From a virus (lineage: Duplodnaviria; Heunggongvirae; Uroviricota; Caudoviricetes), in IMG/VR virus record IMGVR_UViG_3300036768_001066: a stretch of 64,000 nt of DNA. One strand, 5' to 3'. Position 1 is the first letter of the stretch; each line of letters begins with the position of its first letter. The notes beneath the pieces are model-generated. The model ran no database searches. It saw only the letters and a program-made list of their open reading frames with translations, and was not told where the DNA came from. Made by a program: the position numbers and the translations under genes. Shown here one piece after another: positions 3,464-39,994 of the stretch.

Positions 3464-4156
3464 TCAGATTCCTGCGTTCCAGGCCTTCTTCTTAGATTTC
3501 CTCTTGGACTTGCGGTCGCCGAGGTTGGCCATCTGCATTATTTTCTCCCTGGCACGAATAATCCTGGTCTTGACGGTGTTAAGCTCAAGACCGTATTTTG
3601 CGGCTATCTCCTCGTACTGCATCTCGTGGACCTCCCTGTCAATTATGATGTCCTTGTAGTGCGCGGGCAGTTTGTTCATCTGTTCCATCACGCTCTGGTA
3701 CAACGCGTCAGTAACGTCTTCTGGAGATAACATCGGGTCTATCTCGTCTGGCATTGAGATCAGTCCCTCATGATCGATACCGTTATCGATGAGCATGAAG
3801 TCCGGCGAATCCTCAAAGCTGCTGCCTATAAACTTCACGCAGTTCTCGAGCGATACTGTCGAGAGCTGCTTCTTCTTGCGTATGTACTGCATGGCCTCGT
3901 TGCGAGTGACGCGGTATGCCCACGTCGAAAAGCACCAGCACGGCTTGTACGTGTCTATTCTCGACCACATCTTTACGAATGCGTCGGCCACCACGTCGTT
4001 AGCGGCGTCGAGGTCTTTGAGAATGTTGTTTGCGTAGTTGGTCAGTCCAGGGCGTATCCTCTCGAATAAGTTTCTGAAGTCCCTCTCACTCCTCGTCTCG
4101 ATGTACTTAAGCGCGAGCTCATTTATCGAGACCAATCTGATCTCTAAATTCTCCAT
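3464..4156 (-). CDS. ECF-type (group 4) RNA polymerase sigma factor
   Basis: Region 2 FSTWAYRVTRNEAMQYIRK and region 4 HTH EIAAKYGLELNTVKTRIIRAREKI; basic C-terminal tail. Confidence 0.7.
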   Translation of the reverse strand: MENLEIRLVSINELALKYIETRSERDFRNLFERIRPGLTNYANNILKDLDAANDVVADAFVKMWSRIDTYKPCWCFSTWAYRVTRNEAMQYIRKKKQLSTVSLENCVKFIGSSFEDSPDFMLIDNGIDHEGLISMPDEIDPMLSPEDVTDALYQSVMEQMNKLPAHYKDIIIDREVHEMQYEEIAAKYGLELNTVKTRIIRAREKIMQMANLGDRKSKRKSKKKAWNAGI

Positions 4157-4168
4157 TGAAATTGTCTT

Positions 4169-4459
4169 TTAATTTTTGTACGAACCTAATGTTAAGCGCA
4201 CCAGTAGAATGAAACACAAAGATTGCCAGTAATCCAGCGGGTACTCTGGAACCACAACGCCGGCCAGTAACTTCACAACGAGAGCCTCTCCAAATAAGGA
4301 CAGCACCGCTACGAGCAAGCGAGTGAGCGCTTTCGCGATACCCTGTTTATGCTCTGCTATTGCCTGTTCCTTAATCTCCTTTGGCGTTGGTTGGTTTGAC
4401 TCCGAGCCATTGCCCTGTACGGCCTTAACCGAATTGAGTAAGTCATTAAATTGCTTCAT
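4169..4459 (-). CDS. Small membrane protein (96 aa)
   Basis: ORF track; C-terminal transmembrane stretches. Confidence 0.4.
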   Translation of the reverse strand: MKQFNDLLNSVKAVQGNGSESNQPTPKEIKEQAIAEHKQGIAKALTRLLVAVLSLFGEALVVKLLAGVVVPEYPLDYWQSLCFILLVRLTLGSYKN

Positions 4460-4461
4460 GA

Positions 4462-5040
4462 TTATATGTGTATGTTTGTTTTCTTAATAGTGTAAGTGTT
4501 CTCGATGTGTAGCTCAAGCTGGTCCACTCGCACACCGTTGTTTCTCAGGAAGTCGATCCCTGCGACATCGGAGTGCTCCTTATCATAAACCACACGTGAT
4601 ATTTTAGAACGGAGAATGAGCTTGCTGCAGTCCCGACACGGGGATAGTGTTATGTACAGGGTAGCGCCCTCGCACGAGTTTGGTGTGTTTGTGAGCTTGA
4701 GAATGGCGTTGGCTTCTGCGTGTATGACCTCCCACTTGGTCTCGCCTGCTGCATCCTCGCAGCAGTTGTCCATACCGGACGGAGTGCCGTTGAAACCGTC
4801 GGATATTATCATGTTATCCTTTACGATTAACGCGCCTACCTGCTTGCGCTTGCAGTGAGAGTTCTCGGCCCATACGTGGGCCATCCTCATATATGAGATG
4901 TCATATTTAGCTGATTTCATCAGAGTCTTCCTTGGGGATTTATTATACCGCACAGATACGAAATGTTTCGGCTCTGTTGTTTTGTGGGTTTCGGAAGGCC
5001 TCTGTGGGCCCGGAGTTGCAGACAGAATATCTACGCACAT
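4462..5040 (-). CDS. dCMP deaminase (cytidine/deoxycytidylate deaminase family)
   Basis: HAEANAI ... PCRDCSKLI zinc-binding H-A-E / P-C-x-x-C motifs. Confidence 0.85.
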   Translation of the reverse strand: MCVDILSATPGPQRPSETHKTTEPKHFVSVRYNKSPRKTLMKSAKYDISYMRMAHVWAENSHCKRKQVGALIVKDNMIISDGFNGTPSGMDNCCEDAAGETKWEVIHAEANAILKLTNTPNSCEGATLYITLSPCRDCSKLILRSKISRVVYDKEHSDVAGIDFLRNNGVRVDQLELHIENTYTIKKTNIHI

Positions 5041-5094
5041 CCGAACGATCTAATATAACAAGAAATGTTCCTCCGAAGATGGAAGTGGAATAAA

Positions 5095-8000
5095 TTATTT
5101 ATCGGTGACCTTAAGCGTGCCACTGAGTTTAGTATCTATGTCCTCGAGCATATTCAACTTATTCAATTTAGTTAAAATATCTTCGAGCAACTGCTCCATA
5201 CGGGCAGTCGAACCTGTAGCAATTGGTGCGGTGCCTGGATTGGCAGGAGTTTTAGTGTTGGTTACATTCTTAGTTCCACTTTGGTTCGTATTTGAAGTAG
5301 GTGCAGGCGTCGGTGGGGTAGGTGGCGTCTGCTTCTTCTCGCCGTTCTTCTCGTAAATGTACTGGATGAGCATCTTGCCCTTATCCGATAGCGCGTTGAG
5401 CGCGTTAGGATCGGCCTTCGCGAACGTGGTGAGCGACTGGATGAGCATGGTCGAGTTCTTCAGCGTCATCTGGTCCATCTTCTTGAACGTCGCGCCAAAC
5501 TTGTCCATGGTCTTAGCTATCTTGTCGAACGACTTGGCGAGCCTGTCCATAGGGTCGGCAGTTCCGGCCAGACGCTCTATGTACTCTACGGCCTTCTGGA
5601 AGTGTGAGTAATCGGTATCCGGCTTTATAGATGAGAACGCGCCGATGAGTTGCGTCACGGCGTTGCTTATTATCGCGCCTTCCTTGTCCGTTATCTTCTT
5701 CTCGGCAACCTTAGCGAGGGCATCTATGATGGAACCGATAGCGTCCATCATGTTGGAAATAGAGGCGCCGGTCTTCATTAGAGAAGCCCTGTTCTTGTCT
5801 ATTATCTCAGCCGCACCAAGCATGGCCTGCGGTATGAGAATGAGCGTGCGCTTGATGTTCTGCTCGACAACATCAAAGTTCTGTACGGTGGCCACGGATT
5901 GCACCATCTGTGCGATACCGTTGAGGTCGCCAGATACGCCCGCGATCGCTTGCTTGCCTTTCTCTATGTCGGAATCCACGAACCAGCCGGACTGTGCGGC
6001 TTCGCCGGAACCAATCTCTCCGAGAGCGCTTGTCACGGACCTGATCATCGCAACTATGTTACGATAAACCGAGCCGCCCTTCTCGAGCATCTTAGGGTCT
6101 ATGGTGGTCTTGCCAATTTCTTTGCCGTCCTTGTCGTAGATAGGGAACGTCAGGTTGGCGGCCTTCTGCACGAAGTCCGCGAGGCCGACGAGGTCTTGTC
6201 CTATCCCGCGGATAGCGTCGGCACCCTTCTCTCCGTCGCTCTTGCTGAACCATCCAACTTCGCCCTGTCCCTTTCCTATCTCGGTCAGCGTTCCCACGAC
6301 GGCGTTGATTATCTTCTTCATGTTGACGGACACCTGGTCGAATGTCTTGTCACCAATTGTTATGTACGAGGTAACGTTACCGTTTTTATCGTAAATAGGT
6401 ATCTTGAGCTCCGCCATCTTGGCGACGCCGTCCGCTATAGACGAAAGAACATTGCCGACATCCGACACGGCCTCTATGCCGTCCTCTACATCGTCCCAGT
6501 CAACGGACTCCCCGTTGCCAACGTTTATCAAGCACTCGGCAACTGTCGTCAACACGGTGGTGACCATGTCGCCAATCTTGTTGATGTCTATATTCTTCTC
6601 GACTATCTGGACAAACTTGGACAAGCCTGTACCTATTGTGATGAGCCCGATACCCGCCATTATCCACGCCGGCACCGCGGCGTAGAGCTCCATCAATCTG
6701 AATGGACCCATTACCATACCATCTATGATGGCGTCGAGCGTGTATTCAAAGTTGGATACGTCCGGGTCCGTAGCGCTCGGCTTGAACAGTCCTGAGTCCT
6801 TAGTCTTCTTCCATACGAGGTTGAACAATGCTATACCGCCAGCGAGCGTTACGAGGGACACGGACGCTACTATCAAAGCAACGGCGCCGAGCATCATGAA
6901 CACCGACTTCACTGGGTTGATGTAGAACGCCTCGACCACGCTTCCGACCACGAAGTCGAGGTTGGTCTGGTAATCCTCGTTGGTGCTCTTGGCGAGGACA
7001 CCGTCCATCGCCTTCTTGTAGAGCGCGTTCATTACGAATAAACCGCCAGCGAGTGTCACGAGAGCTATCGATGCGAACATCAAGGCGACGGCTCCTATCA
7101 TCATGAACACGGCCTTTACCGGGTTGATGAAGAACGCGTCCACAACGCTGCCTATGACAATGTCGAGGTTCGTCTGTTCCGGATCCGCCGTTGATGGAGC
7201 GAGTATTCCGTCCATGGCCTTAACGTACATAGTGTTCATGACAGCGAGACCGGCGGACAACGATATGAGAGCGACTCCGGCAACTATCAATGCGACGGCT
7301 CCGAGCAATATCAGTGGAGACAACAGTCCAGCGAGCATAAATGCACCTGCGGTGACCGCGACGGCTCCGCCCGCTGCGAGATAATCCGCAGTCTCTATTC
7401 CAAACAACCTGAACGCACCAATGCCGAGCGCGAGCGCTATGAGCGCGAGACCTGCCATCGCGAGAGGTATGACACCGGCTTCTATGAGAGAGCCGAATAT
7501 ACCGGCTATACCGAACGCAATACCGAGTATCGCGACGGCTCCGGCTGCCACGAGCACAGTGCCGAACGAAATATTGAACGCCTGGAATATAGCAAGACCT
7601 ATGCCCAATGCTATTATGGCGAGACCCATCCAAGCTACGGCTTTTGCACTCTTCTGTATCGGGTCGGCAAATTCGCTTATTATGTAAAATGTTATGCCGA
7701 ATAGTGCGAGTGCGCCTACGACTATCAAGCTGGCTACTGCGAGGTCCTTCCAGCTTCCGCCTACCAGCGTTTTTGTTATCCAGAGCGCGAGCCCGAACGA
7801 TGCGATGGCGAGGCCCATCCATGCTACAGCTTTGGCCCCCGCGTCGATCGCAGGTGCGGCCTTTCCTATTAGACTGAACACGTATGCGAACGCCGCTATT
7901 GTAGGTATGACTATGAGCGCGCCAAGCGCGGCTATTAAGTACACAGGCGCCGCGAGCGCGAGCGTCAATCCGAATATAGCAATAGCACCGGCCATCGATG

Positions 8001-8457
8001 ATAAGCCTTCTGCGCCCTCTTGTATTTTCTTTCCGTCTATCTTGGCGAGTTGTTCCGCAAGCTTGACTATAAGGTCGACCATCGAGGTCATAACCTTCTG
8101 CGGAACTATCATGAATTTTATACCAGCCTTGGCGAAGTCGAGCAACCCCTTCGAGAAAACGGTCAGACCCTCTCCCATGGCCTTCAGGTTGTCGCCGGTA
8201 TCTTTACTGATCTTGCCGAGCCCTCCGAGGGATGAGAGCATGCTTGATCCCTTACCACCGCCTCCTGCTTTTTCACCGCCGCCACCGCCGCCAGCCTTCT
8301 TTAGAAGTTGTTCGAGCTTGTCCACGAACGCGCCGAGTATGGTGTTCTGTGTGGATACGGCCGTCTCGAGGTTCTCGACGAGAGCCTCCATGGAACGTGC
8401 CGAATCCGCCATCATCTTGGCGGAGGACGCTATTATGTTCAGTGACTTGTTTGTCAT
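5095..8457 (-). CDS. Large multi-TM repeat protein (1120 aa), putative tail tape measure / membrane-interacting ejection protein
   Basis: Downstream of sheath, tube and small genes; N-terminal coiled region with poly-Gly; many hydrophobic helices; ~65-aa tandem repeats (INPVK..FMM..ALYKKAMDG) and ~90-aa repeats (PIYDK.GK..); C-terminal TPPTPPTPAPT linker. Confidence 0.45.
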   Translation of the reverse strand: MTNKSLNIIASSAKMMADSARSMEALVENLETAVSTQNTILGAFVDKLEQLLKKAGGGGGGEKAGGGGKGSSMLSSLGGLGKISKDTGDNLKAMGEGLTVFSKGLLDFAKAGIKFMIVPQKVMTSMVDLIVKLAEQLAKIDGKKIQEGAEGLSSMAGAIAIFGLTLALAAPVYLIAALGALIVIPTIAAFAYVFSLIGKAAPAIDAGAKAVAWMGLAIASFGLALWITKTLVGGSWKDLAVASLIVVGALALFGITFYIISEFADPIQKSAKAVAWMGLAIIALGIGLAIFQAFNISFGTVLVAAGAVAILGIAFGIAGIFGSLIEAGVIPLAMAGLALIALALGIGAFRLFGIETADYLAAGGAVAVTAGAFMLAGLLSPLILLGAVALIVAGVALISLSAGLAVMNTMYVKAMDGILAPSTADPEQTNLDIVIGSVVDAFFINPVKAVFMMIGAVALMFASIALVTLAGGLFVMNALYKKAMDGVLAKSTNEDYQTNLDFVVGSVVEAFYINPVKSVFMMLGAVALIVASVSLVTLAGGIALFNLVWKKTKDSGLFKPSATDPDVSNFEYTLDAIIDGMVMGPFRLMELYAAVPAWIMAGIGLITIGTGLSKFVQIVEKNIDINKIGDMVTTVLTTVAECLINVGNGESVDWDDVEDGIEAVSDVGNVLSSIADGVAKMAELKIPIYDKNGNVTSYITIGDKTFDQVSVNMKKIINAVVGTLTEIGKGQGEVGWFSKSDGEKGADAIRGIGQDLVGLADFVQKAANLTFPIYDKDGKEIGKTTIDPKMLEKGGSVYRNIVAMIRSVTSALGEIGSGEAAQSGWFVDSDIEKGKQAIAGVSGDLNGIAQMVQSVATVQNFDVVEQNIKRTLILIPQAMLGAAEIIDKNRASLMKTGASISNMMDAIGSIIDALAKVAEKKITDKEGAIISNAVTQLIGAFSSIKPDTDYSHFQKAVEYIERLAGTADPMDRLAKSFDKIAKTMDKFGATFKKMDQMTLKNSTMLIQSLTTFAKADPNALNALSDKGKMLIQYIYEKNGEKKQTPPTPPTPAPTSNTNQSGTKNVTNTKTPANPGTAPIATGSTARMEQLLEDILTKLNKLNMLEDIDTKLSGTLKVTDK

Positions 8458-8560
8458 CTAAATTATTCCTTGACTATTTCTGCGAGCGTTATTATGCTTG
8501 TAGTATCATCGTCATCACCGATATTAGTGTACAACATGAACTCACCCTTCTGCATATACA

Positions 8561-15978: not shown

Positions 15979-18900
15979 TCAACTCATGAGCCCCGACAAG
16001 AAGTCTGAGTCGTAACTTTTCTGCGGCTCATCCCTCGTACTCGTCAGCTTGTTTGTGATAAGCGTCCTGTACTTCTCATCGAGTCCATCGTATATATTCT
16101 CCACAATCTCGTAATACTGGTCCGAAGAGAAAAAAGGTACGAGATTTACCATGGACATAGCAATGTCGTCATGCCCTATCTGGCTCGAATACGAGCCTTT
16201 CTTGTCCAATCCGAAAGACATCAGCTCGTTGAACGTGTTCTTCTCGCAAGGTATAATCCTTCCGGATCTCACCAAGCGCCTGAATTCCATGCAGTACTCG
16301 TACTTGTTCTTAGGGTTCAGCTTGATGCCAGGGAGCATCCTCTTGGCATTCTCCGAGTGCTTGGTGTGTATGAACATGTCCTCGTAGAACTTGGTGTGGT
16401 TGCTCATGCGCTCGTACAGGAGGTTGCCCTTGAAGTCCATCTCGAGCACTATCTTGACCGCGTCCTCTCCAAACACGTCGTACAGAAGAGTCTCCACAAT
16501 AGGCTGCAGGTCCTCTACGCCGGCCTTATTAGACCTGAACATTCCCACCTGGAGCAAAGACATGAAGTCGCCCTCATCATTTGCGGTGAGCTGCTGCTCT
16601 ATCATCTTCTCCGGCATCGGCACAAGCTTAAAGATGTTCAGTATGGTGTAGTCACCTCCCCCACCTCCGGCCGTATCTATTGTGAAAACGAACCTGTCCG
16701 TATCCTTTATCGTATCAAGATTGAACTTGGGGTGCCACTTGAGGTGCTCGTAGTTGATCTCCTTGTTGTGCAAATCGGTTATCTCGTGCCACACGAATTC
16801 TGTGGTGAGTCTCTTGACCTGACCAAGCGTCTTGTGGTCCAATAATAATTTGGATGACGCGAGGAACTGACAGTTGTGTACCGCACGACCCTCCACGAAA
16901 TAAGAGTTGTCCACCTCGACCTCCAGATTGTAAACCGTGCCGAAATATGGGTATTTTTTCGCAGCTTTGACCTGTCCGGACACGCTTAGTTTGTGGCACC
17001 TTATCCTGCTCTTCTTGTTATCGTTATTAGACGTGGCTTTGTTTATCCGCAATTGGTGGGCTTCATTGGCGAAAACATCTCGGCCGACCACTTTACGGAT
17101 GCCGGATTTATTACCAAACGTTATACTGCATGTATATCCGAGAGCATGCGATAACAATTGCAACTGATAAGCCAACGTGTATGAAACTGTAGTATACCCG
17201 TCGTGCGTCTTGTTCTTATAAAAACCGTCGCCATTTATCAATGTATCATACACGATTTGTTCGTGCCCGGCTATTAACTCAAAGGGTATTTTTTTTTCTA
17301 AAGCTCCAGCTCCGCAGTTTTTAACAAAAAACTCGACAAGGTCGGCATCGTTAACAATTATTTCGGTAGAATTATCCCTGACACGTACATGCACCTTACC
17401 CGAAGATACAGTAGCAAGGCACCGTAGGATCTGGTCCCTGAACCCCGTCTCTTCTTTATGTAAGCCGAAACTGACCTGCGATTTGCGGGCGCATCCCTTG
17501 GCTATGTACCAACCAATCAACAACGCCATATCTTCCGATATGACCTTGGATTTTTTTAGAAGTGGCTTGGCATAACACAGCCAATCTTCTGTACGTATCG
17601 AATCCGCGGAGGTCCACTCGTATCTACGACCTTCCAATACCGTCCGTATCGGGTGTTCGTTTGTGCATTTTATAGGCCGGTTATTCCCGTACGAATAGAG
17701 CTCGTGCAGTTCCCCGTCATACACGCGCTCCGACACCACCTTGACTTTATGGTAGCGATTTGAATGTGTGAGGACTAAATCGCCGGGGTGTATGTCTCTA
17801 ATTGGTTTCACTCCATCGATTGTAGTAACCAAGCTATCACCTGTAAAACATCCATATTCCTGATTGAAGTCCTCCTCCGAACCGAGGTTGCCTATCTCAC
17901 GCCTCATCCACGCCTCATCCCTTCCGGGCACCTGCCACCAGTCTATTCGTATAGGCTTGAACTCGTTCTTGCCCTCGAGCGCGGCGGTGTATATGTCGTA
18001 GAACTTATTCATACCGTTCGGCGTGGACGTTATGACCACCCTTGATATGTTAGACGACGAGAGCGTCGGGTATACGGACCGCCAGAACGGGTCTATGAAG
18101 TTCTGGTGTATGTGAGCAAACTCATCACAGTACAGGAAGTGAATGGCGAAACCGATGGCCGCTGTCTTGGTAGTGTTACGTCCAAAGAGCCTGCACCCAT
18201 TATCGAACTTCATGGTCATCTGGTTGTTCAGTATGATACCAGGCTTCAGGAAAAACGGAAGGTTCTGCAGTATGACCTTTATTTTATCTATGATCTCTAT
18301 GGTGGTAGCTCCCGTATTGGAGAGCACCATAAGGTTCTTGTCAGAGTGGAACAGCAAGTACCACGTAAGGAATATGCCTGTGGTTATAGTATTGTGGGTC
18401 GGAATAAAATGGTCGGTTAAGTACAGATGGTCTTGGTTGTCAACCATTATGCACTGAACGTCTTCATGCCCGTCTAATTCAACAGAAGCTATCCCGCGCC
18501 TGCGACCCCAATCATAATGCTTATCCCGTATAAGGCGTTGCTTTCTGTCCAGCCTGAATATAGGATATGCGAATCCATTCGGGAGCATCAGTTTCAACCT
18601 GTGTGCAGGCAGGCAAGCCACTCGCGTGCCATCCTCTTTGCGGTATCCAGTTTCCTTGACAGAGCGGCACACAACTATGCCGAGGGATTCACACAATTGT
18701 TGTACATCGTCGGCCAACCTCGGCGACGAAGTGGTAAACACTACATTGGACTTTTTAGTAACGTGTCCATTGGTATCCATCAGACCTTGTAATAATGATA
18801 GCCTCTGCTGTATAGAACCATATAAATATATTTCGGGTATGAATTTATGTTCGGACCTCTTGCCCATTAGCCCTAACGATTTTAGCTCCGTTATGACCTC

Positions 18901-19809
18901 ATTTGTGTATCCTGATTTTTTGGTAACAAAATACGCATATCTGTCATGACCATTTTGTTTAATGCACACATCATGTGCTTCGCATACTTCGTTGTTCAGG
19001 TATTCTACTATTTGTGAGTCGGCGCTGGCCACATTTAGATACTTATTTGACATGCAGCCATCTCCGAGCATAAGTCCGAGAAAATATGGGTCTATATTAA
19101 AATCTGCCTCGGGAAAATTTACCGGTTCAGATGTTCGGACAAACCACTTATAATCCCCGCGCTTTGACAGAAGTCCTTTAGATACTATCTCGCGTAGCTC
19201 CAGTGTTTTTTCGGTTCCATCTACGGTCTCTACTGTCCACAGGTGCTCGCCGCAAGACCTGACAGTGGACCCGTCTGAAAATGTTATATTGTATACATCT
19301 CGCTTACCTTGCGGGAATATGCCAACCACGCTGGTTAGGTTGCCAGAGGCATCGTATATTTTATCGCCTAAAAGAAGGTCGCCGAACCTTGCCTTGCCAG
19401 TAGATTTCCAGACAATTGCGTCCAAGGGCTGAGCTTTTCCCACCTGCCTTGGGGACAGGAACACGCAGAACCTCGAGTCCTGAAAATCCCTGAGTACGTC
19501 CTCCTGGTAGTCACGCAGCTTAATGTTCTTTACGCCTTCATCCGTCATGGAGAAGCAGTAGTTGTTGGCGAAATATATGACGTCCCTCGCGCAGCGCTGT
19601 ATCTCTTCCATCTCCTCCACTGTATACTCGTATACTATATTGGCAGAGCGCCACTCGGGCTTGCCGTCCCAGAATGGAGTAGACTTAACGTCGACACCCG
19701 CGTCTATGTTCTCGAGAAGCTCATTTACCTTCTCGGTGGTCCATACCTGCGACAGGTTCTTGACGTTCTGTTCCTCGTGCTGCTTCTTGTATCTGTTATT
19801 TTCTTCCAT
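15979..19809 (-). CDS. Terminase large subunit (T4 gp17-like) interrupted by two inteins; spliced product ~602 aa
   Basis: Exteins give Walker A SPRQVGK|TITTG, DNGCRLFG, Walker B FLYCDEFAHI, VVITSTPNGMNKFYDIYTAALEGK and a nuclease domain; closely resembles gp17. Confidence 0.9.
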   Translation of the reverse strand: MEENNRYKKQHEEQNVKNLSQVWTTEKVNELLENIDAGVDVKSTPFWDGKPEWRSANIVYEYTVEEMEEIQRCARDVIYFANNYCFSMTDEGVKNIKLRDYQEDVLRDFQDSRFCVFLSPRQVGKAQPLDAIVWKSTGKARFGDLLLGDKIYDASGNLTSVVGIFPQGKRDVYNITFSDGSTVRSCGEHLWTVETVDGTEKTLELREIVSKGLLSKRGDYKWFVRTSEPVNFPEADFNIDPYFLGLMLGDGCMSNKYLNVASADSQIVEYLNNEVCEAHDVCIKQNGHDRYAYFVTKKSGYTNEVITELKSLGLMGKRSEHKFIPEIYLYGSIQQRLSLLQGLMDTNGHVTKKSNVVFTTSSPRLADDVQQLCESLGIVVCRSVKETGYRKEDGTRVACLPAHRLKLMLPNGFAYPIFRLDRKQRLIRDKHYDWGRRRGIASVELDGHEDVQCIMVDNQDHLYLTDHFIPTHNTITTGIFLTWYLLFHSDKNLMVLSNTGATTIEIIDKIKVILQNLPFFLKPGIILNNQMTMKFDNGCRLFGRNTTKTAAIGFAIHFLYCDEFAHIHQNFIDPFWRSVYPTLSSSNISRVVITSTPNGMNKFYDIYTAALEGKNEFKPIRIDWWQVPGRDEAWMRREIGNLGSEEDFNQEYGCFTGDSLVTTIDGVKPIRDIHPGDLVLTHSNRYHKVKVVSERVYDGELHELYSYGNNRPIKCTNEHPIRTVLEGRRYEWTSADSIRTEDWLCYAKPLLKKSKVISEDMALLIGWYIAKGCARKSQVSFGLHKEETGFRDQILRCLATVSSGKVHVRVRDNSTEIIVNDADLVEFFVKNCGAGALEKKIPFELIAGHEQIVYDTLINGDGFYKNKTHDGYTTVSYTLAYQLQLLSHALGYTCSITFGNKSGIRKVVGRDVFANEAHQLRINKATSNNDNKKSRIRCHKLSVSGQVKAAKKYPYFGTVYNLEVEVDNSYFVEGRAVHNCQFLASSKLLLDHKTLGQVKRLTTEFVWHEITDLHNKEINYEHLKWHPKFNLDTIKDTDRFVFTIDTAGGGGGDYTILNIFKLVPMPEKMIEQQLTANDEGDFMSLLQVGMFRSNKAGVEDLQPIVETLLYDVFGEDAVKIVLEMDFKGNLLYERMSNHTKFYEDMFIHTKHSENAKRMLPGIKLNPKNKYEYCMEFRRLVRSGRIIPCEKNTFNELMSFGLDKKGSYSSQIGHDDIAMSMVNLVPFFSSDQYYEIVENIYDGLDEKYRTLITNKLTSTRDEPQKSYDSDFLSGLMS
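16873..17850 (-). other. Intein 2 in terminase (326 aa, LAGLIDADG homing endonuclease domain)
   Basis: Starts CFTGDSLVTTIDG, ends YFVEGRAVHN followed by extein C; LAGLIDADG motifs LLIGWYIAKGC and DTLINGDGFY. Confidence 0.8.
18391..19434 (-). other. Intein 1 in terminase (348 aa, LAGLIDADG homing endonuclease domain); inserted between Walker A Lys and Thr; first residue Ala
   Basis: Starts AQPLDAIVWK, ends HFIPTHN followed by extein T; LAGLIDADG motifs DPYFLGLMLGDGC and LSLLQGLMDTNGHV; removal restores GKT. Confidence 0.8.
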
Positions 19810-20836: not shown

Positions 20837-21415
20837 CTATAGGGAAAAATTTTCGAGGAACATAAACGCGCACTGCCTGGCACTAAGACCGGCCGTTTCT
20901 ATGACCATGTCTGGGTCCTTTGGGACCTCGTACGGCGAGTCTATCCCGGTGAATCCCTTTATCTCACCCGCCCGGGCTTTTTTATACAGGCCTTTCGGGT
21001 CGCGGTCCTCGCACACGTCGAGCGAAGTGGACACGAATACCTCGAAGTAGTCCTTACCAATGATGCTGCGTACCATCTGACGGTCCGTCTCGTACGGGGA
21101 TATGAAGCAGGCGAATACTATTATGCCTGCGTCGTTGAACAATTTGCAAGTCTCGGCTATTCGCCGCAGGTTCTCCTTCCTGCCCTCGGGAGAGAACCCA
21201 AGCCCGGAGCACAGTCCCATTCTAACGTTGTCGCCGTCGAGTATGTACGTTGCGTAGCCACTCTCGTTAAGAGTCAACTCTATGTTGCTCGCTATTGTCG
21301 ATTTACCGGAACCGGAAAGTCCGGTAAACCAGATGGTCCTACCTCTCTGGTTGAGCACCATCTCCCGGTCCTCTCTCCTCACCAGGTGATTGTGTGGGTG
21401 AATGTTTTCTTTCAT
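20837..21415 (-). CDS. cysC: Adenylylsulfate (APS) kinase
   Basis: WFTGLSGSGKSTIA, LDGDNVRMGL, FISPY..DR, RDPKGLYKKARAGEIKGFTGIDSPYE match CysC nearly motif-for-motif. Confidence 0.85.
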   Translation of the reverse strand: MKENIHPHNHLVRREDREMVLNQRGRTIWFTGLSGSGKSTIASNIELTLNESGYATYILDGDNVRMGLCSGLGFSPEGRKENLRRIAETCKLFNDAGIIVFACFISPYETDRQMVRSIIGKDYFEVFVSTSLDVCEDRDPKGLYKKARAGEIKGFTGIDSPYEVPKDPDMVIETAGLSARQCAFMFLENFSL

Positions 21416-21679: not shown

Positions 21680-22429
21680 TCACTTTATTATTTGTATTTG
21701 GGATGGGTCCCATACGACTATCTCGGACACCTCGTCTATCGGCGTCTTGTCTCCGTCCTTGCCGACGACGAAGATCCCGTCGTATCCGTTCTTCTGTAGT
21801 AATTCGTGAAAGTTCCAGCGGCCGAGCTTTTGGATAACCCAGTTGGCGAGGCCACCGTCAAATTCAACGTCGGCCCTCATATCGTTGAATCGCACCACAG
21901 CAAGCTCCTTGTACCCTTCAAGTATGTCCTTCTTGGCAGCATCTTCCTTTTTCAGATAGATGCTCGGACCGTACACCTCGTCGTCAGTGCCCCACAGTTC
22001 TTTTTTGGGAACAACTGCTATCTCGACCACTTCGTCGTGGTTTGTATCGCGTACGGTCAGTTCAAATCCTTCGGGAATCTCCTTGTTCGGCTTGAAGTAC
22101 GACGGCACGCCTTTGAGTTTGGATAGATCCTCTCTTAGGTAAATCTCCTCGTAGCTGCCAAGCATCGACCATGTGCGAAGATAGAACGGGTTTTTAACAT
22201 CGAGGTTTGCCTCGATGACGCGTGATCCGTACTCGCGGGCATAGTCCTTGTCAATGGTGAAATAGAACCCTCGTCCATAATAACCCTCGTCGGTCTGCCC
22301 CATATATGAGGCGTCGAACTTGTCGAACTTGGAATTGGTGCCGTGATACACGGTCAATAGTTGTCCGTTCTTCGATACCTTAGAATTATCGAAACTCCTG
22401 AACTCGTTTATGTCCCTCAGGTGCTTCAT
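21680..22429 (-). CDS. PARP-like ADP-ribosyltransferase (H-Y-[E] class catalytic core)
   Basis: VYHGTNSKF ... YGRGFYFTIDKDYAREYG parallels the PARP LLWHGSR ... FGKGIYFAD ... S..Y signature. Confidence 0.5.
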   Translation of the reverse strand: MKHLRDINEFRSFDNSKVSKNGQLLTVYHGTNSKFDKFDASYMGQTDEGYYGRGFYFTIDKDYAREYGSRVIEANLDVKNPFYLRTWSMLGSYEEIYLREDLSKLKGVPSYFKPNKEIPEGFELTVRDTNHDEVVEIAVVPKKELWGTDDEVYGPSIYLKKEDAAKKDILEGYKELAVVRFNDMRADVEFDGGLANWVIQKLGRWNFHELLQKNGYDGIFVVGKDGDKTPIDEVSEIVVWDPSQIQIIK

Positions 22430-28431: not shown

Positions 28432-28848
28432 TTACACGTGGAGACCTCCGATGTTCCCCTTATACAGGTCCTTCATCGTAATCCGTTTCCCTGTGACGTG
28501 GTCGATGACGTAGCCGTCCTGGTCCCGGTAGGTCCTGCGCTTGTCGTTGCGCTCTCCGGTGCCTATCTGCGAGTTGCGGATGCCCTGGATCTTGCGGCCC
28601 TCCCCGTTGTCGTGGATGGCCCGCAGCTTGTCCTCCAGGCGTTCCCAGGCCGCGGCCTCGTTCTTCTCGCGCGTCCTGTGCTCCTCCGACCTGACCTGCA
28701 TGCTGGACGGAATATGCGTGAGCACGACGCAAGTCTCGACCTTGTTCACCTTTTGCCCGCCCTTGCCGCCAGACCTGCAGTACTTGCGGTCGACGTCGTT
28801 GCGGTTTAGCACGAAGTTTTGTTGTGGTTTATCGTCCATGACTGCCAC
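28432..28848 (-). CDS. Release-factor-like GGQ-domain protein (ArfB/RF-family peptidyl-tRNA hydrolase)
   Basis: SGGKGGQKVNKVETCVVLTHIP GGQ motif; C-terminal RTYRDQDGYVIDHVTGKRI like RF1/RF2 RTYNF..RVTDHR. Confidence 0.65.
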   Translation of the reverse strand: MAVMDDKPQQNFVLNRNDVDRKYCRSGGKGGQKVNKVETCVVLTHIPSSMQVRSEEHRTREKNEAAAWERLEDKLRAIHDNGEGRKIQGIRNSQIGTGERNDKRRTYRDQDGYVIDHVTGKRITMKDLYKGNIGGLHV

Positions 28849-30446: not shown

Positions 30447-30701
30447 TTCGGCATCCCAAGCACATTTCCTCCGTGTCCAAAGGTTACGCTTTCAATTTTC
30501 CCTAATTTCTTTTCCATTGTCATTTAGTTTTTAAATTATAAATTCAGAAGCCTTCCCTTCTGTTGTTTTTACTTACTGACAGTAGCTCTCGTAGCGGGGC
30601 AATACCTGAGAATCCTATTAAAAACATATTTTTTCCTTTTTAGTTTTAGTTATCTGTAATCAAACAGTTACTGGCAATATACAAAATTTAGAACTAACTT
30701 G

Positions 30702-30784
30702 TAGCGCTGGCCGGACTCGAACCGGCGATGCGTTTCCGCGCCTCCTTATGAGGGAGGTCCAATACCATCTCTGGTCACAGCGCT
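30702..30784 (-). tRNA. tRNA-like, anticodon CAT, long variable arm, possible 8-bp acceptor
   Basis: Stem CCTCC/GGAGG, loop CTCATAA; variable CGCGGAAACGCATC; T-arm GCCGG TTCGAGT CCGGC. Confidence 0.45.
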
Positions 30785-31041
30785 AAGTCTTCCCTCACAA
30801 TTCTCTCGATCAGGTCAACGTCCAGCTCCTTGAGCACGGTCTCGTTGCCGTTCTCGTCAGTGGTCTTCGTCCTGCGCCAGATGCGGTCGCCGAGTTTCTG
30901 CCTGGTGACTATCCGGTACTGAGAGTGCGGTTCCGCCGGGAAGAGCGTAACACACAGAGAGCCGAGGCGAGTGTAGTGCACCCAGATCCTCCTGAAATTC
31001 ACGAGCCGCTCTCTGAGCTCGCGTTCTACGTTACATTCCAT
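30775..31041 (-). CDS. Hypothetical protein (88 aa) between tRNA genes
   Basis: ORF track. Confidence 0.35.
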   Translation of the reverse strand: MECNVERELRERLVNFRRIWVHYTRLGSLCVTLFPAEPHSQYRIVTRQKLGDRIWRRTKTTDENGNETVLKELDVDLIERIVREDLAL

Positions 31042-31054
31042 CGTTCATACATTT

Positions 31055-31145
31055 TGGTTGCCCCGGTGGGATTCGAACCCACGTTGGAAGTTACCTTCTC
31101 CGGATTAAGAGTCCGGTACTTTCGGCCAGCTAAGCGAACGGGGCA
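31055..31145 (-). tRNA. tRNA-like, anticodon CTT by loop CTCTTAA, long variable arm, CCA encoded
   Basis: Acceptor TGCCCCG/CGGGGCA, T-arm GTGGG TTCGAAT CCCAC, variable AGAAGGTAACTTCCAAC. Confidence 0.45.
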
Positions 31146-31157
31146 GTTTAAATTTTG

Positions 31158-31245
31158 TGCGCCCGGCAGGATTCGAACCTGCGATGGTGGTTACCCCACT
31201 CCACATTAAAAGTGTGGTGCTCTCGGCCAACTGAGCAACAGACGC
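31158..31245 (-). tRNA. tRNA-like, anticodon TTT, long variable arm (88 nt)
   Basis: D-arm GCTCAGTTGGCCGAGAGC, stem CCACA/TGTGG, loop CTTTTAA, variable AGTGGGGTAACCACCATC, T-arm GCAGG TTCGAAT CCTGC. Confidence 0.5.
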
Positions 31246-31269
31246 AAAATTTTACTTCGTTCTTATTTG

Positions 31270-31342
31270 TGCGCCCGTCTGGAGTCGAACCAGACCTGAA
31301 TGGTTAAAAGCCATTTGCCTACAACCGGTTTGCTACGAGCGC
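31270..31342 (-). tRNA. tRNA-Lys (anticodon TTT), 73 nt, weak D-stem
   Basis: Stem AATGG/CCATT, loop CTTTTAA, T-arm TCTGG TTCGACT CCAGA. Confidence 0.55.
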
Positions 31343-31491
31343 ATGATTGATGCCTCGCAGTCAGCAAGGCGTTACCGTTTATATTTTCGTTTCTGCTTCA
31401 TTTTCGTTTCTTAAATTTTTTGGCTCCCATGATTAACGACCTTTGGGTATTAGTATCCGAAACGGTCATGCGGATCTGCCATTATTTTTTG

Positions 31492-31573
31492 AGCCTGAGG
31501 AGGGATTCGAACCCCCGTTGTTTGAGTTCCTGCTTACAAGGCAGGCGCAGTCGACCACTGATGCCACTCAGGC
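31492..31573 (-). tRNA. tRNA-Thr (anticodon TGT) with extended 12-nt variable region
   Basis: Acceptor GCCTGAG/CTCAGGC, stem CCTGC/GCAGG, loop CTTGTAA. Confidence 0.55.
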
Positions 31574-31761
31574 AATTTACATTCTTCTCTTAATGCCCGT
31601 ATGCTCAAGATAAGTTGTTATCGAGAACTGTACAGACGGTTTAAATTTTCCGCCCATTATCTTGCAATAATAATCGGACATAGCGTTCAATTTATATTCG
31701 ACAGGTTTATCTATCTCGTATAGTTCGACCTGCCTCGTTTTTATCTCTCTTGTCTTCATCG

Positions 31762-31834
31762 AGCTACCGGCGGGGATCGAACCCGCGACCTCGTCCTTAC
31801 CAAGGACGTGTTCCACCGACTGAACTACAGCAGC
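31762..31834 (-). tRNA. tRNA-Thr (anticodon GGT)
   Basis: D-arm GTTCAGTCGGTGGAAC, stem CGTCC/GGACG, loop TTGGTAA, T-arm GCGGG TTCGATC CCCGC. Confidence 0.65.
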
Positions 31835-31924
31835 ATAATGAACAGGTGAAATATCGATGCAGTGTGAGATTCTGCTTCTTCTTTCATAGGACGATTGGCA
31901 TAACCCCAATCATCTTGTTCACTG

Positions 31925-31998
31925 AGCATGTAGTCGGGATCGAACCGACTCTGTTCCAGCTTGGAAGGCTGGCGCACCACCACTTATGCGTTACATGC
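31925..31998 (-). tRNA. tRNA-Gly (anticodon TCC)
   Basis: Acceptor GCATGTA/TACATGC, stem CCAGC/GCTGG, loop CTTCCAA. Confidence 0.6.
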
Positions 31999-32091
31999 AA
32001 AATACGTTCTCTCCACTTGCTACCTCCAACTGGTCCCAGGTTCAGCGGTTAAGAGTCAGGTACATCTCATAGTCACCCAGAGAGAACGTGG

Positions 32092-32178
32092 AGCGGGTAG
32101 TGAGATTCGAACTCACGATCTGACCTTATCTGACCAGCTTGGAAGGCTGGTGCGATGGACCAACTACGCGACACCCGC
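32092..32178 (-). tRNA. tRNA-like, anticodon TCC, long variable arm; anticodon arm identical to the canonical tRNA-Gly(TCC) next to it
   Basis: CCAGCCTTCCAAGCTGG followed by TCAGATAAGGTCAGATC, then T-arm GTGAG TTCGAAT CTCAC. Confidence 0.45.
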
Positions 32179-32264
32179 AAATATTTTAGACAGGGACTGA
32201 AGGGAATTTTCACCTTGGCTCCGGCGGCCTTTCGGTCTCACGATCTACATCAGTTTGTCCTTTG

Positions 32265-32336
32265 TAACGGAGGGCAGAATCGAACTGCCGGGGTCCAGGC
32301 TTATGAGACCAGAAGGTTACCAACAACCTCTCCGCA
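32265..32336 (-). tRNA. tRNA-like, probable anticodon CAT, irregular acceptor and anticodon stems
   Basis: T-arm GGCAG TTCGATT CTGCC; loop CTCATAA with a T-T mismatch in the stem. Confidence 0.35.
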
Positions 32337-32529
32337 ATGTTCAGCGGTTCTCCTGGACCCTATTACCAGGATTTACTTTGGATTGTCGAGTTCTAAATTT
32401 CTCAATAATGAACGACGACAACAGAACCACTTAATGTGGCGGACAAGTGAGATAATGACCTTGTGCGAGATTCGAGGTCCTCTCTCATTGGGTGATCGGT
32501 ATCGCAACCCCGACCATTCTTGTCCACTG

Positions 32530-32602
32530 AGCGGGGGACGGGATTCGAACCCGCGACCTTCACCTTGGCAAGGTGACGCTCTACCAACTGAGCTACTCCC
32601 GC
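32530..32602 (-). tRNA. tRNA-Gly (anticodon GCC)
   Basis: GCGGGAG TA GCTCAGTTGGTAGAGC, stem TCACC/GGTGA, loop TTGCCAA. Confidence 0.7.
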
Positions 32603-32716
32603 ATGAACACCGATTCCTGTCTTCCTCACTGCCTCGGTGTACCACAGCAGTGTCATTCCCTAATTGGAGCCGAGGGGCAGCCCGCCGGCTGTGCGTTCCC
32701 TTTCAACTCGGCATTT

Positions 32717-32797
32717 GTGCGGGAGGAGGACTCGAACCTCCGAGGCTTGCGCATAGGATCATGAGTCCTACCTGATACCATCTTCAGTCACCCCGCA
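32717..32797 (-). tRNA. tRNA-like, anticodon CAT, extended 12-nt variable region
   Basis: Stem TAGGA/TCCTA, loop CTCATGA, T-arm GGAGG TTCGAGT CCTCC. Confidence 0.45.
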
Positions 32798-32821
32798 ATA
32801 TTTTGGTCGCCAGACCTTTTG

Positions 32822-32893
32822 TGCACCCGGAAGGACTCGAACCTTCAACCTACCGGTTAAGAGCCGGGAGCTCTACCATTGAGCTACGGATGC
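32822..32893 (-). tRNA. tRNA-Lys (anticodon CTT)
   Basis: GCATCCG TA GCTCAATGGTAGAGC, loop CTCTTAA, T-arm GAAGG TTCGAGT CCTTC. Confidence 0.6.
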
Positions 32894-38305: not shown

Positions 38306-39994
38306 TTAGGCTGTTATCTCAACATCCATCTCGATTTCAGCGTTCTTACGAACCTGGTCGAACGTGTACTCCACAAGGATCTCTCCATCTCGGAATACCG
38401 GCACCAATACGTCCTCGTATTTGTCGAAATCTGGATCTGTTGACTGCACCGTCTTGAATGCTTCCCACGCCTGCATTCCAGGCTTTCTTTCGGCACGAAC
38501 AAGTTTACAGTATCCAGTTTTTGATTTCTTAACCGCATCGGTCACAGGGTTCTTCTCGATGTTCACGCCGACTCCGTTGATAATTACATGCGTAGCCTTG
38601 ATAGCGTACTTCTGCTCGTCGCGGTCGTGTGCCTGTAGATATTTTCCACCGGAACCGAACACCAGATTCATGATGTCGATTTTCACGGAGATCATACGTT
38701 CGTAAAGTAGGGACATCAATTTGTAATTCACACCATCTCCTTGGAGCACACCGATCTGAGGGTGGAATACTCTGAAACCTTTCGAGTTTGTGGTGAATCC
38801 AAAGTGGTCGAACAGGATATTGAAAATTCCTTTATCCACGAGGCTCTGCGCTTCGACAATGTCAATGTCCATGTGTTTAGACACCTTCATCACAACTTGC
38901 GACACGTAGTGCGGGTCCACCTTTGAATCGTTGAACAATCCGAATAGAACCATCTCGGCATCTCCGGAATCAGGACGTACGACAATCTTGATAGGGATAC
39001 CATGATTATTGGTCCATCCGATGAACTCGTCTTTAAGGCCAGGAAGGATTCTGTGACACACGTTATAGATATTCTTGGTATCCGATACGAGAGATAAGAT
39101 GATCACCCCACTTGCAGGGTTGGCATTTAGCACCAATGGGTCGGTCTTGACCTTGTTGATGATGGTGCGGTATCCCTCAGGATCGCTCGCATCGCCATCG
39201 TATGAACAATGCACTGAGTGTTCCGACGCGATAACAGAGAAACCGGCCATTGGACAACCGTAGTACTTCTCGGCAAGAACACAAGCACCTAATGTGTCGG
39301 TTCCTTTGAACGAGATAAGCGCCGCGGTACCAAGGATGCGAGCGGACTCTTCCGAGCTAACTCCACGGTATCCGAAGTCGTGGTGCATGAAGTCGATCAG
39401 CCACTGTGGCGCGTCGGACGACAATGCGTGATACTTAACGATAAGTTCCTTCACCAGGCGAGCGTACGTCGCGACAGTGTTAGGCGCCCACAATTTCATC
39501 AACGTGGTTTCGCTGATGTTGGTGAGTGGTGAGCACTTCTTATCTGTATTGCGGATAGTCATGATGATGTTCTTCACCGCAACCGGAGTACCTTCCGGAA
39601 CTGCCTTGATCTCGAGAGGTAATCTTCCTCCGTGATTCTCCCAGATGTGGTACCACATCTTGTCGTTAAAACAGTCGAAGCCGAAGTGTGCGATGTTCTT
39701 CTTACGAGCTTCCTCGATTTTTGCTGGGGTAATGCGAACACCGGCAAAGTATTTTTTCAGATAGTACTGCAATAAGCAAAGGATAGTGTAAGGCATATCC
39801 CCGCCGCGCGACTCAAGACCCGAATAGGTCTCCTCGATTCCATCAGGTACGAGAAGGTGGTGCGTCATTTTGTAACTGTCCGACATGATGATGAAATTGT
39901 CTTCATCTTGTAAATTTTGGATGATGGCTACGAGCTCTGTCACACTCATGTTTTGCAGCTCGGCATCCGTGTAATCGCCATGATGTTTCTTCAT
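38306..39994 (-). CDS. nadV: Nicotinamide phosphoribosyltransferase (NAMPT)
   Basis: DSYKMTHH, LPLEIKAVPEG, HDFGYRGVSS, FKGTDT, VRPDSG, LQGDGV, VFGSGG align with the eukaryotic and KVP40 NAMPT signature. Confidence 0.9.
   Translation of the reverse strand: MKKHHGDYTDAELQNMSVTELVAIIQNLQDEDNFIIMSDSYKMTHHLLVPDGIEETYSGLESRGGDMPYTILCLLQYYLKKYFAGVRITPAKIEEARKKNIAHFGFDCFNDKMWYHIWENHGGRLPLEIKAVPEGTPVAVKNIIMTIRNTDKKCSPLTNISETTLMKLWAPNTVATYARLVKELIVKYHALSSDAPQWLIDFMHHDFGYRGVSSEESARILGTAALISFKGTDTLGACVLAEKYYGCPMAGFSVIASEHSVHCSYDGDASDPEGYRTIINKVKTDPLVLNANPASGVIILSLVSDTKNIYNVCHRILPGLKDEFIGWTNNHGIPIKIVVRPDSGDAEMVLFGLFNDSKVDPHYVSQVVMKVSKHMDIDIVEAQSLVDKGIFNILFDHFGFTTNSKGFRVFHPQIGVLQGDGVNYKLMSLLYERMISVKIDIMNLVFGSGGKYLQAHDRDEQKYAIKATHVIINGVGVNIEKNPVTDAVKKSKTGYCKLVRAERKPGMQAWEAFKTVQSTDPDFDKYEDVLVPVFRDGEILVEYTFDQVRKNAEIEMDVEITA

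Follow-up and report, generated by a model that had tools for sequence, protein, structure and literature searches.

A gp17-type phage terminase precursor with predicted inteins of class 3 in the P-loop and of class 1 at the edge of the ATPase domain

The large terminase (TerL) gene on the minus strand of the window, i. e. the whole stretch of 64,000 nucleotides of the Caudoviricetes record IMGVR_UViG_3300036768_001066 that was analysed here, is a single uninterrupted frame of 1276 codons without frameshift or stop (Table 1). Our analysis strongly supports the idea that this gene encodes a gp17-type TerL precursor with a class 3 intein (intein 1) and a class 1 intein (intein 2), that the precursor is matured by splicing, and that homing has probably been lost. 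An earlier sequence-only reading of this DNA had placed two LAGLIDADG-type inteins at residues 126-473 and 654-979, and translation and coordinate mapping reproduced these junctions exactly.

The same reading had claimed that excision of both inteins restores a contiguous gp17-like terminase with the Walker A motif SPRQVGKT, and this is indeed the case. The spliced product, with a predicted length of 602 amino acids and a predicted mass of 70 kDa, matches T4 gp17 (PDB 3ezk, the residue numbering of which is that of T4 gp17) with E=3.3e-52 in one alignment that spans both junctions. Its ATPase part is aligned to gp17 residues 87-361, with the motifs SPRQVGKT, FLYCDEF and TSTPNG contiguous, and motif reading found Walker A, Walker B and the C-motif intact in the exteins and the Asp/Glu/Asp of the nuclease apparently so. 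For the nuclease domain, phmmer gave only a weak stretch (extein residues 487-548 against T4 488-549) and Pfam Terminase_6C gave no match; by inspection, the motifs IDTAGG, LEMD and GHDD fit the pattern of gp17 of phage ECD7. Intein-free metagenomic homologues read SRQVGKTISS at the first insertion site and FNQEYGLRF at the second. The exact protein (P0001) sits on a contig of 373,759 bp. A megablast search of the locus against phage genomes gave no match; the phage thus has no close cultured relative.

Class 3 inteins are defined by a non-nucleophilic residue 1 that co-varies with Trp at block B:12, Cys at block F:4 and Thr at block G:5 (the WCT triplet), and they usually carry Thr or Ser at the +1 position (PMC2807308; PMC5050341). 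Intein 1 is inserted at the position of T4 gp17 K166↓T167 inside the Walker A motif (arrows mark junctions), and its boundaries read ...SPRQVGK↓AQPLDAIVW and HFIPTHN↓TITTG. Thus, the sequence-only reading was correct in that the intein splits GK↓T, starts with Ala (A126) and ends with His-Asn before a +1 Thr (H472-N473↓T474). The Cys, Thr, His and Asn residues are invariant in 42/42 aligned terminase relatives, and the Trp corresponding to W191 was found in all 42 of them. Residue 1 is never Cys, Ser or Thr: It is Ala126 here and A, D, V or R across the aligned relatives. A phmmer search against the sequences of solved structures gave the class 3 DnaB inteins 6rix (9e-7) and 6bs8 (3e-6) as the best matches of intein 1. 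Both halves of the splicing domain are aligned, SCGEHLW with ADA(A/Q)HQW and DVQCIMVDNQDHLYLTDHFIPTHN with PVRCVEVDNPxHLYLAG.GMVPTHN, and this places Cys453 in the context DVQCIMVD opposite the block F motif PVRCVEVD of 6bs8 and 6rix. Because the WCT triplet is complete, the +1 residue is Thr and homology to characterised class 3 inteins is evident, intein 1 is assigned from its sequence to class 3, and Ala1 is thereby explained; the non-canonical class 2/3 mechanism that had been proposed for it can thus be narrowed to class 3.

The fold of intein 1 agrees with this assignment. Pfam identified LAGLIDADG_3 (4.5e-16) and Hom_end in this intein, and the splicing domain that was missed by the Pfam Hint models was recovered by the searches of solved structures and by the fold search. 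An AlphaFold (AF2) model of residues 100-500, built with 31 homologues, reached a predicted local distance difference test (pLDDT) value of 87.9 and a predicted template modelling score (pTM) of 0.85. Foldseek gave PI-SceI as the best match of the model in the PDB (E=2e-18, TM about 0.65); the splicing domain was matched by 6bs8 and 6riy with a target TM of 0.78. The model of intein 1 thus has a HINT fold.

Intein 2 is inserted at the position of T4 gp17 T353↓A354 at the C-terminal edge of the ATPase domain; the nuclease domain of T4 gp17 starts at about residue 360, and the insertion site precedes T4 residue 361 by seven residues. The boundaries ...FNQEYG↓CFTGDSLV and GRAVHN↓CQFLAS bear out the earlier description as a CFTGD...HN↓C type intein. 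The class 1 residues C654, T716-N-E-H719 (block B) and H978-N979↓C980 are conserved in 28 relatives, and Hint_2 matches with 30.6 bits, above the cut-off of 28.4. Among the PDB sequences, PI-PkoII is the sole match (E=6e-5), through the endonuclease domain. Judged by these residues, intein 2 is a class 1 intein.

We suggest that two independent protein-splicing reactions would convert the 146-kDa precursor into the 70-kDa packaging ATPase-nuclease. Since residue 1 of intein 1 is Ala, the reaction would be started by the internal Cys453 of block F: This residue would attack the peptide bond between K125 and A126 to form a thioester branch, the N-extein would then be transferred to the hydroxyl group of Thr474, cyclisation of Asn473 would free the intein, and an O-to-N shift would rebuild GK-T. 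Intein 2 would be spliced by the class 1 route using Cys654, Cys980 and Asn979. Both inteins would have arrived as mobile LAGLIDADG homing elements, and selection on the essential host gene would maintain splicing while homing decays.

LAGLIDADG enzymes have one catalytic carboxylate per motif. The sequence-only reading had assigned double LAGLIDADG motifs to both inteins; the two motifs were seen in each of them, but one catalytic position is substituted in each: Two LAGLIDADG helices are present, yet one of the carboxylates is replaced by Asn347 in intein 1 and by Lys771 in intein 2. In motif 2 of intein 1, the catalytic Asp is present in 33/42 relatives, and a few others also have Asn or Ala. 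In motif 1 of intein 2, all 28 relatives have Glu or Asp and PI-PkoII has Glu, whereas a Lys is found here. Since each motif supplies one carboxylate and one per intein is lost, both endonucleases are probably inactive or at best nickases, and homing is probably extinct. In contrast, neither intein has lost any of the residues that splicing is known to require, as would be expected of insertions in an essential gene.

The intein 1 allele is shared with cultured phages. The same pattern GK↓A...HxW...C(I/L)xV...PTHN↓T, with 330-342 amino acids and a double LAGLIDADG motif, occupies the identical position in Klebsiella phage RaK2 (AFA44384), Escherichia phage ECD7 gp17 (ASJ80244) and Synechococcus phage B23 gp267, and the tblastn table suggests that K64-1, many Krischvirus and Rak2-like phages, and B3 carry it as well. 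That Hint and LAGLIDADG domains are present in TerL of RaK2 and K64-1 was noted earlier in the CBB paper (PMC5259590), and class 3 inteins in phage large terminases, mostly in P-loops, were already stated in 2010 (Tori et al., PMC2807308); a class 3 assignment of the inteins of RaK2, K64-1, ECD7, B3 and B23 was not found in the accessible literature. The allele is present in 26/26 nearest metagenomic TerL relatives (P0002-P0027); we regard intein 1 as an old element that has become fixed in this clade of terminases. Between clades, the identities of inteins and exteins do not match: Some inteins share 45-51% identity with intein 1 although their exteins share only 33-37%, and the closest extein (P0002, 74.5%) has an intein at 56.9%, less similar than the inteins of more distant relatives. 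This mismatch suggests past exchange among lineages and supports a mobile origin.

Three further observations concern the intein 1 family. (i) Class 3 inteins close to intein 1 occur in metagenomic PhoH-like, Snf2, FtsH and Clp-type ATPases, one to three per protein (among P0028-P0050 and P0084-P0120), and each ends with ...C(I/L)x(V/I)...(V/P)THN↓(T/S). (ii) In GenBank records of several cultured phages (FL04, FL15, vB_EcoM_PTE-Eco09 and Slicko01), the intein-bearing gp17 is labelled 'HNH endonuclease domain protein' or 'replicative DNA helicase DnaB'; this labelling apparently goes back to the likeness of the intein to DnaB inteins. (iii) In the 462-kb uncultured phage LR756500.1 (L001, TerL about 54% identical), two open reading frames (positions 4001-7589) make up TerL, which is divided at this P-loop site, with the ends ...ARQTGK↓CF... 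and ...NGILSSQ↓TICSS..., and a free-standing endonuclease-like open reading frame of 366 amino acids with weak matches to DUF559 and MTES_1575 lies between them. This arrangement resembles a naturally split intein with a terminal Gln, and a contiguous mini-intein version of the element is present in P0034 and P0053.

The base composition of the gene supports a mobile origin of the inteins. The GC content at third codon positions (GC3) is 0.71 for the exteins, 0.47 for intein 1, 0.51 for intein 2 and 0.49 for both inteins together, as compared to 0.67 for the sheath gene and 0.63 for the adjoining paralogue of the ATPase domain. The difference between exteins and inteins is significant (Fisher p=2e-15), and it was reached by 11/1276 circular mask shifts. 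GC3 of the P-loop intein is below that of the extein in 6/6 terminase genes (the window gene and L007, L008, L002, L003 and L004), and the gap is widest in the GC-richer hosts, with 0.71 versus 0.47 here and 0.59 versus 0.23 in L007.

The distribution of intein 2 is a different one. While a word-indexed protein search with intein 2 alone gave no match, an exhaustive phmmer search against 1.84 billion representatives yielded 6528 relatives at E<=1e-3, of which 90 reached E<=1e-30. All 28 high-scoring relatives in which the junctions were read have ...QE(Y/F)x↓CF(P/T)...GRxVHN↓CxF... although the Terminase_6-type proteins that carry them are very diverse. The TerL junction pattern QEY.↓C..HN↓C.F fits 54 of the best 150, and the relatives show conservation of blocks A, B (TPEHP), F (VYNL) and G. 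Among the 30 tblastn matches listed for cultured phages, none is in a terminase; all are inteins of DNA methyltransferases and NrdD, with 24-27% identity to intein 2. The intein is absent from all of the 26 nearest TerL relatives. At the empty site, the +1 residue in the nine closest of them (P0002-P0010) is Asn, Leu or Cys, and in P0005 and P0009, the two with Cys, the site is empty but competent. Since the nearest TerL relatives lack intein 2 and its own relatives share the terminase junction, the comparison identifies intein 2 as a sporadic later acquisition from a family that is specialised on the QEY↓CxF site of terminases.

Several points weigh against this interpretation of the gene. 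The Hint and LAGLIDADG profiles expected by the sequence-only reading were recovered in part: Hint_2, LAGLIDADG_3 and Hom_end matched, but none of the Hint-type models of Pfam reached significance for the splicing domain of intein 1. On intein 2, Intein_splicing scored 29.9, below its cut-off of 35.8, which is passed by the close relatives P0241-P0247. The inactivity of the endonucleases rests on single substitutions, and an enzyme with one remaining LAGLIDADG site might still introduce nicks into DNA. A second assembly (Logan SRR11728137) contains the terminase gene without a single base difference, with identity over 23.8 kb, but this assembly may share reads with the first one and would thus not be an independent biological sample. 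The drop in GC3 was rejected as a sign of recent arrival, as it has the same direction in five relatives; low GC3 is a trait of the intein family and not a clock. Finally, the anatomy, homology, conserved residues, fold and distribution of the inteins are shown here, whereas the splicing of this terminase and its chemistry are inferred from sequence rather than from experiment.

Could the terminase be disabled? One or both inteins might not splice, and the genome, which measures at least 374 kb, might then hold elsewhere another terminase gene that does the packaging, or the upstream paralogue might assist. There is decay in both endonuclease domains, the second terminase-like gene adjoins, and our inspection covered 64 kb of the genome. 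However, all splicing residues and, as read by inspection, the catalytic motifs of the exteins are intact, the 1276 codons contain neither frameshift nor stop, and GC3 of the exteins is close to that of the neighbouring genes. Moreover, the paralogue lacks the Walker A Lys and the entire nuclease domain and therefore cannot substitute. We thus regard a disabled terminase as improbable. An even smaller chance is given to intein 1 being a class 2 (KlbA-like) intein, a type that forms no block F thioester because its N-terminal junction is the direct target of the +1 residue: The Ala start is shared with the KlbA inteins (PMC2807308), but class 2 inteins have no WCT triplet, Asp at block F:4 and Cys at +1, whereas intein 1 has an invariant WCT triplet, Cys at block F:4 and Thr at +1, and its nearest solved relatives are class 3 inteins. 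Self-splicing introns or in-frame free-standing homing endonuclease genes can virtually be dismissed, since, although LAGLIDADG genes are common in group I introns and LR756500.1 has a free-standing endonuclease reading frame that splits TerL at the same P-loop site, the frame is open across all four boundaries, each endonuclease domain is framed by Hint blocks A, B, F and G with the canonical ends ...HN↓T and ...HN↓C, the Rfam scan of the window found no group I or II intron family, and the model of intein 1 has a PI-SceI-like architecture of HINT and LAGLIDADG domains.

A terminase with two inteins is in good company. Both inteins belong to known, abundant families, and the two-intein terminase has precedents. 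The view that two inteins, one of them with Ala1, are unusual was therefore overstated: The same intein 1 allele is found in RaK2, ECD7 and B23, and multi-intein TerLs are easily found, one of them published. P0044 combines a class 3 P-loop intein with a mini-intein at the exact site of intein 2, P0107 has three inteins in TerL, and P0253, P0259, P0279 and P0284 have two or three. P0241, which bears the closest relative of intein 2 (51%), begins inside a P-loop mini-intein, without N-extein or Walker A; it represents a two-intein TerL. A TerL with two inteins has been published for crAss-like phages of the Delta group (Yutin et al. 2021, PMC7886860). The crAss-like and the other multi-intein TerLs are alike in having two or three in-frame inteins, whereas the terminase lineages and intein families differ. 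The exact pairing of a class 3 intein with a relative of intein 2 was found in none of the best 150 relatives.

Comparison with the closest known systems shows what is shared and what is specific. The class 3 prototype, the DnaB intein of mycobacteriophage Bethlehem (PMC2807308), has in common with intein 1 the non-nucleophilic residue 1, the WCT triplet, the terminal His-Asn, Thr at +1, a length of about 340 amino acids with a LAGLIDADG domain, and the phage origin; however, it has Pro1, Ser at block B:7 and DnaB as the host, as compared to Ala1, Cys at block B:7 and TerL for intein 1, and it does not have the Asn that replaces the catalytic Asp in the second LAGLIDADG motif of intein 1. DnaB of M. 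smegmatis (PMC6195587) also contains a class 3 intein in Walker A (DnaBi1, 6BS8) and a class 1 intein downstream (DnaBi2). DnaBi1 is among the best sequence matches to intein 1 (E=3e-6), with block B HxW and ...C..VDN..HLYL....PTHN aligned, but it is a mini-intein without endonuclease, with Ser at +1, Asp at block B:7 and a cellular helicase as the host, and intein 1 differs in all these respects. TerL of RaK2, K64-1, ECD7 and the Synechococcus phages B3 and B23 shares the Lys↓Thr insertion, Ala1, HxW, PTHN↓T and the double LAGLIDADG motif; unlike the terminase described here, these proteins have only the intein 1 type, are about 30-33% identical over the aligned region, and have kept the Asp of motif 2. 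In mycobacteriophages, TerL is the main phage intein host and the insertions cluster in the ATPase domain, and for representatives both splicing and endonuclease activity have been demonstrated (Kelley et al.). As in our case, inteins are found both at the K↓T P-loop site and at a site where the ATPase domain ends, and class 1 and class 3 inteins are present; however, these terminases mostly belong to the Terminase_1 family and have one intein each in this survey, and the named class 3 examples are at sites c, d and e rather than at K↓T. Finally, PI-SceI and PI-PkoII have the same architecture of HINT and two-motif LAGLIDADG domains at an identity of 13-18%, whereas each intein here is without one of the two catalytic carboxylates.

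The redox control of DnaBi1 via Cys48-Cys118 (Kelley et al. 2018, PMC6195587) offers an analogy for intein 1. Modelled on this switch, Cys453 could pair with Cys186 at block B:7. It is conceivable, though we regard it as unlikely, that the inteins are no longer mere parasites but act as post-translational gates on DNA packaging: With both endonucleases crippled and splicing retained, the class 3 intein would keep the P-loop blocked until Cys453 is reduced. If so, the condition of the infected cell would determine when or whether the terminase is active, possibly with participation of the conserved paralogue that lacks the P-loop Lys.

Table 1. Features of the terminase locus and of the tRNA cluster in the 64,000-nucleotide window (aa, amino acids; nt, nucleotides). 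Intein classes and the role of Cys453 are predictions.
Feature	Position	Strand	Evidence and remarks
Large terminase (gp17-type TerL) precursor, 1276 aa, 146 kDa	15979..19809	-	Pfam Terminase_6N; gp17 alignment
N-extein, aa 1-125, ends with first half of Walker A (SPRQVGK)	19435..19809	-	translation, gp17 alignment
Intein 1, aa 126-473 (348 aa), class 3 with LAGLIDADG endonuclease domain	18391..19434	-	junctions, homology, model
Intein 1, block B CGEHLW: C186 position 7, H189 position 10, W191 position 12 (Trp of the WCT triplet)	19237..19254	-	
Intein 1, LAGLIDADG motif 1 LGLMLGDGC, catalytic Asp250 retained	19054..19080	-	
Intein 1, LAGLIDADG motif 2 LQGLMDTNG, Asn347 (codon AAT) at catalytic Asp position	18766..18792	-	
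Intein 1, Cys453, block F position 4, predicted initiating nucleophile	18451..18453	-	Cys in 42/42 relatives; aligned with catalytic Cys of 6bs8, 6rix
Intein 1, T471-H472-N473↓T474: block G position 5 Thr of the WCT triplet, terminal His-Asn, +1 Thr	18388..18399	-	
Middle extein, aa 474-653, remainder of ATPase domain	17851..18390	-	translation, gp17 alignment
Walker B FLYCDEF, middle extein	18118-18138	-	
C-motif TSTPNG, middle extein	18013-18030	-	
Intein 2, aa 654-979 (326 aa), class 1 with LAGLIDADG domain	16873..17850	-	Hint_2, junctions, relatives
Intein 2, LAGLIDADG motif 1 LIGWYIAKG, Lys771 (codon AAG) at carboxylate position	17494..17520	-	
Intein 2, LAGLIDADG motif 2 DTLINGDG, catalytic Asp861 retained	17224..17247	-	
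C-extein, aa 980-1276 and stop, predicted RNase H-like nuclease domain (IDTAGG, LEMD, GHDD motifs)	15979..16872	-	
Intein-free paralogue of the TerL ATPase domain alone, 336 aa	19796..20806	-	38% identity to extein, E=9e-59; overlaps TerL start by 14 nt
Long tRNAs Lys(UUU), Lys(CUU), Gly(UCC), Thr(UGU), Met, 81-91 nt	30701-32893	-	Rfam
Long tRNAs, example positions	31157-31245, 31055-31145, 32089-32178, 31491-31573, 32717-32797	-	

The intein-free paralogue lies upstream of TerL, where T4 has the small terminase gene, and PHROGs places it under "terminase large subunit". Its Walker A motif reads SRQMGMT, without Lys. In ten orthologues of 294-336 amino acids (P0122-P0128, P0141, P0142 and P0148), the P-loop Lys is replaced by M, L, F, I or T in 10/10; the full-length TerL matches with a recognisable Walker A all retain GK(T/S). 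The Walker B Glu is also lost in some orthologues (DN in L007, IIDN in L001), and LR756500.1 has its Lys-less paralogue at 7681-8493, downstream of the split TerL. The paralogue looks like a conserved pseudo-ATPase, and from its sequence it is perhaps a partner or regulator of the terminase. An analogous truncated terminase of Rak2-like and phiM12-type phages was called unusual in the CBB paper (PMC5259590). RaK2_00110 was considered as an orthologue on account of its position and a PRQTGTT motif, but was rejected, as BLASTP (E=0.96) revealed no similarity.

The tail sheath gene is located downstream of the terminase. The packaging module is surrounded by auxiliary genes (window positions 20837-21415, 21680-22429, 38306-39994 and about 28432-28839, all on the minus strand): an adenylylsulfate (APS) kinase immediately upstream of TerL and its paralogue, an ART-PolyVal ADP-ribosyltransferase, a nicotinamide phosphoribosyltransferase (NAMPT), and a small RF-1-domain protein that adjoins the tRNA cluster. 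The window also carries a T4-type portal, an RNA ligase and 20 tRNAs.

In bacteria, long variable arms are normally confined to Leu, Ser and Tyr tRNAs. In the window, the Rfam alignment revealed an insertion of 9-15 nucleotides at the position of the variable arm in the tRNAs for Lys (UUU and CUU), Gly (UCC) and Thr (UGU), which in two tRNAs is a 4-bp stem with a GUAA loop. The long Lys, Gly and Met tRNAs are each near a tRNA of normal length with the same anticodon. These tRNAs and the Lys-less paralogue are possibly more unusual than the inteins.

The two-intein terminase leaves the current understanding of inteins unchanged. For annotation, it is relevant that a 1276-amino acid "intein/homing endonuclease" reading frame in fact encodes the large terminase of a phage whose genome measures at least 374 kb. 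For the family, our work illustrates how firmly class 3 inteins are established in the P-loops of T4-type terminases across enterobacterial, cyanobacterial and jumbo phages. It also illustrates that inteins make heavy use of a second terminase site, the QEY↓CxF junction that closes the ATPase domain, and that cultured phages hardly reveal this use. Moreover, the gene provides an example of endonuclease decay that proceeds while the splicing residues stay preserved.

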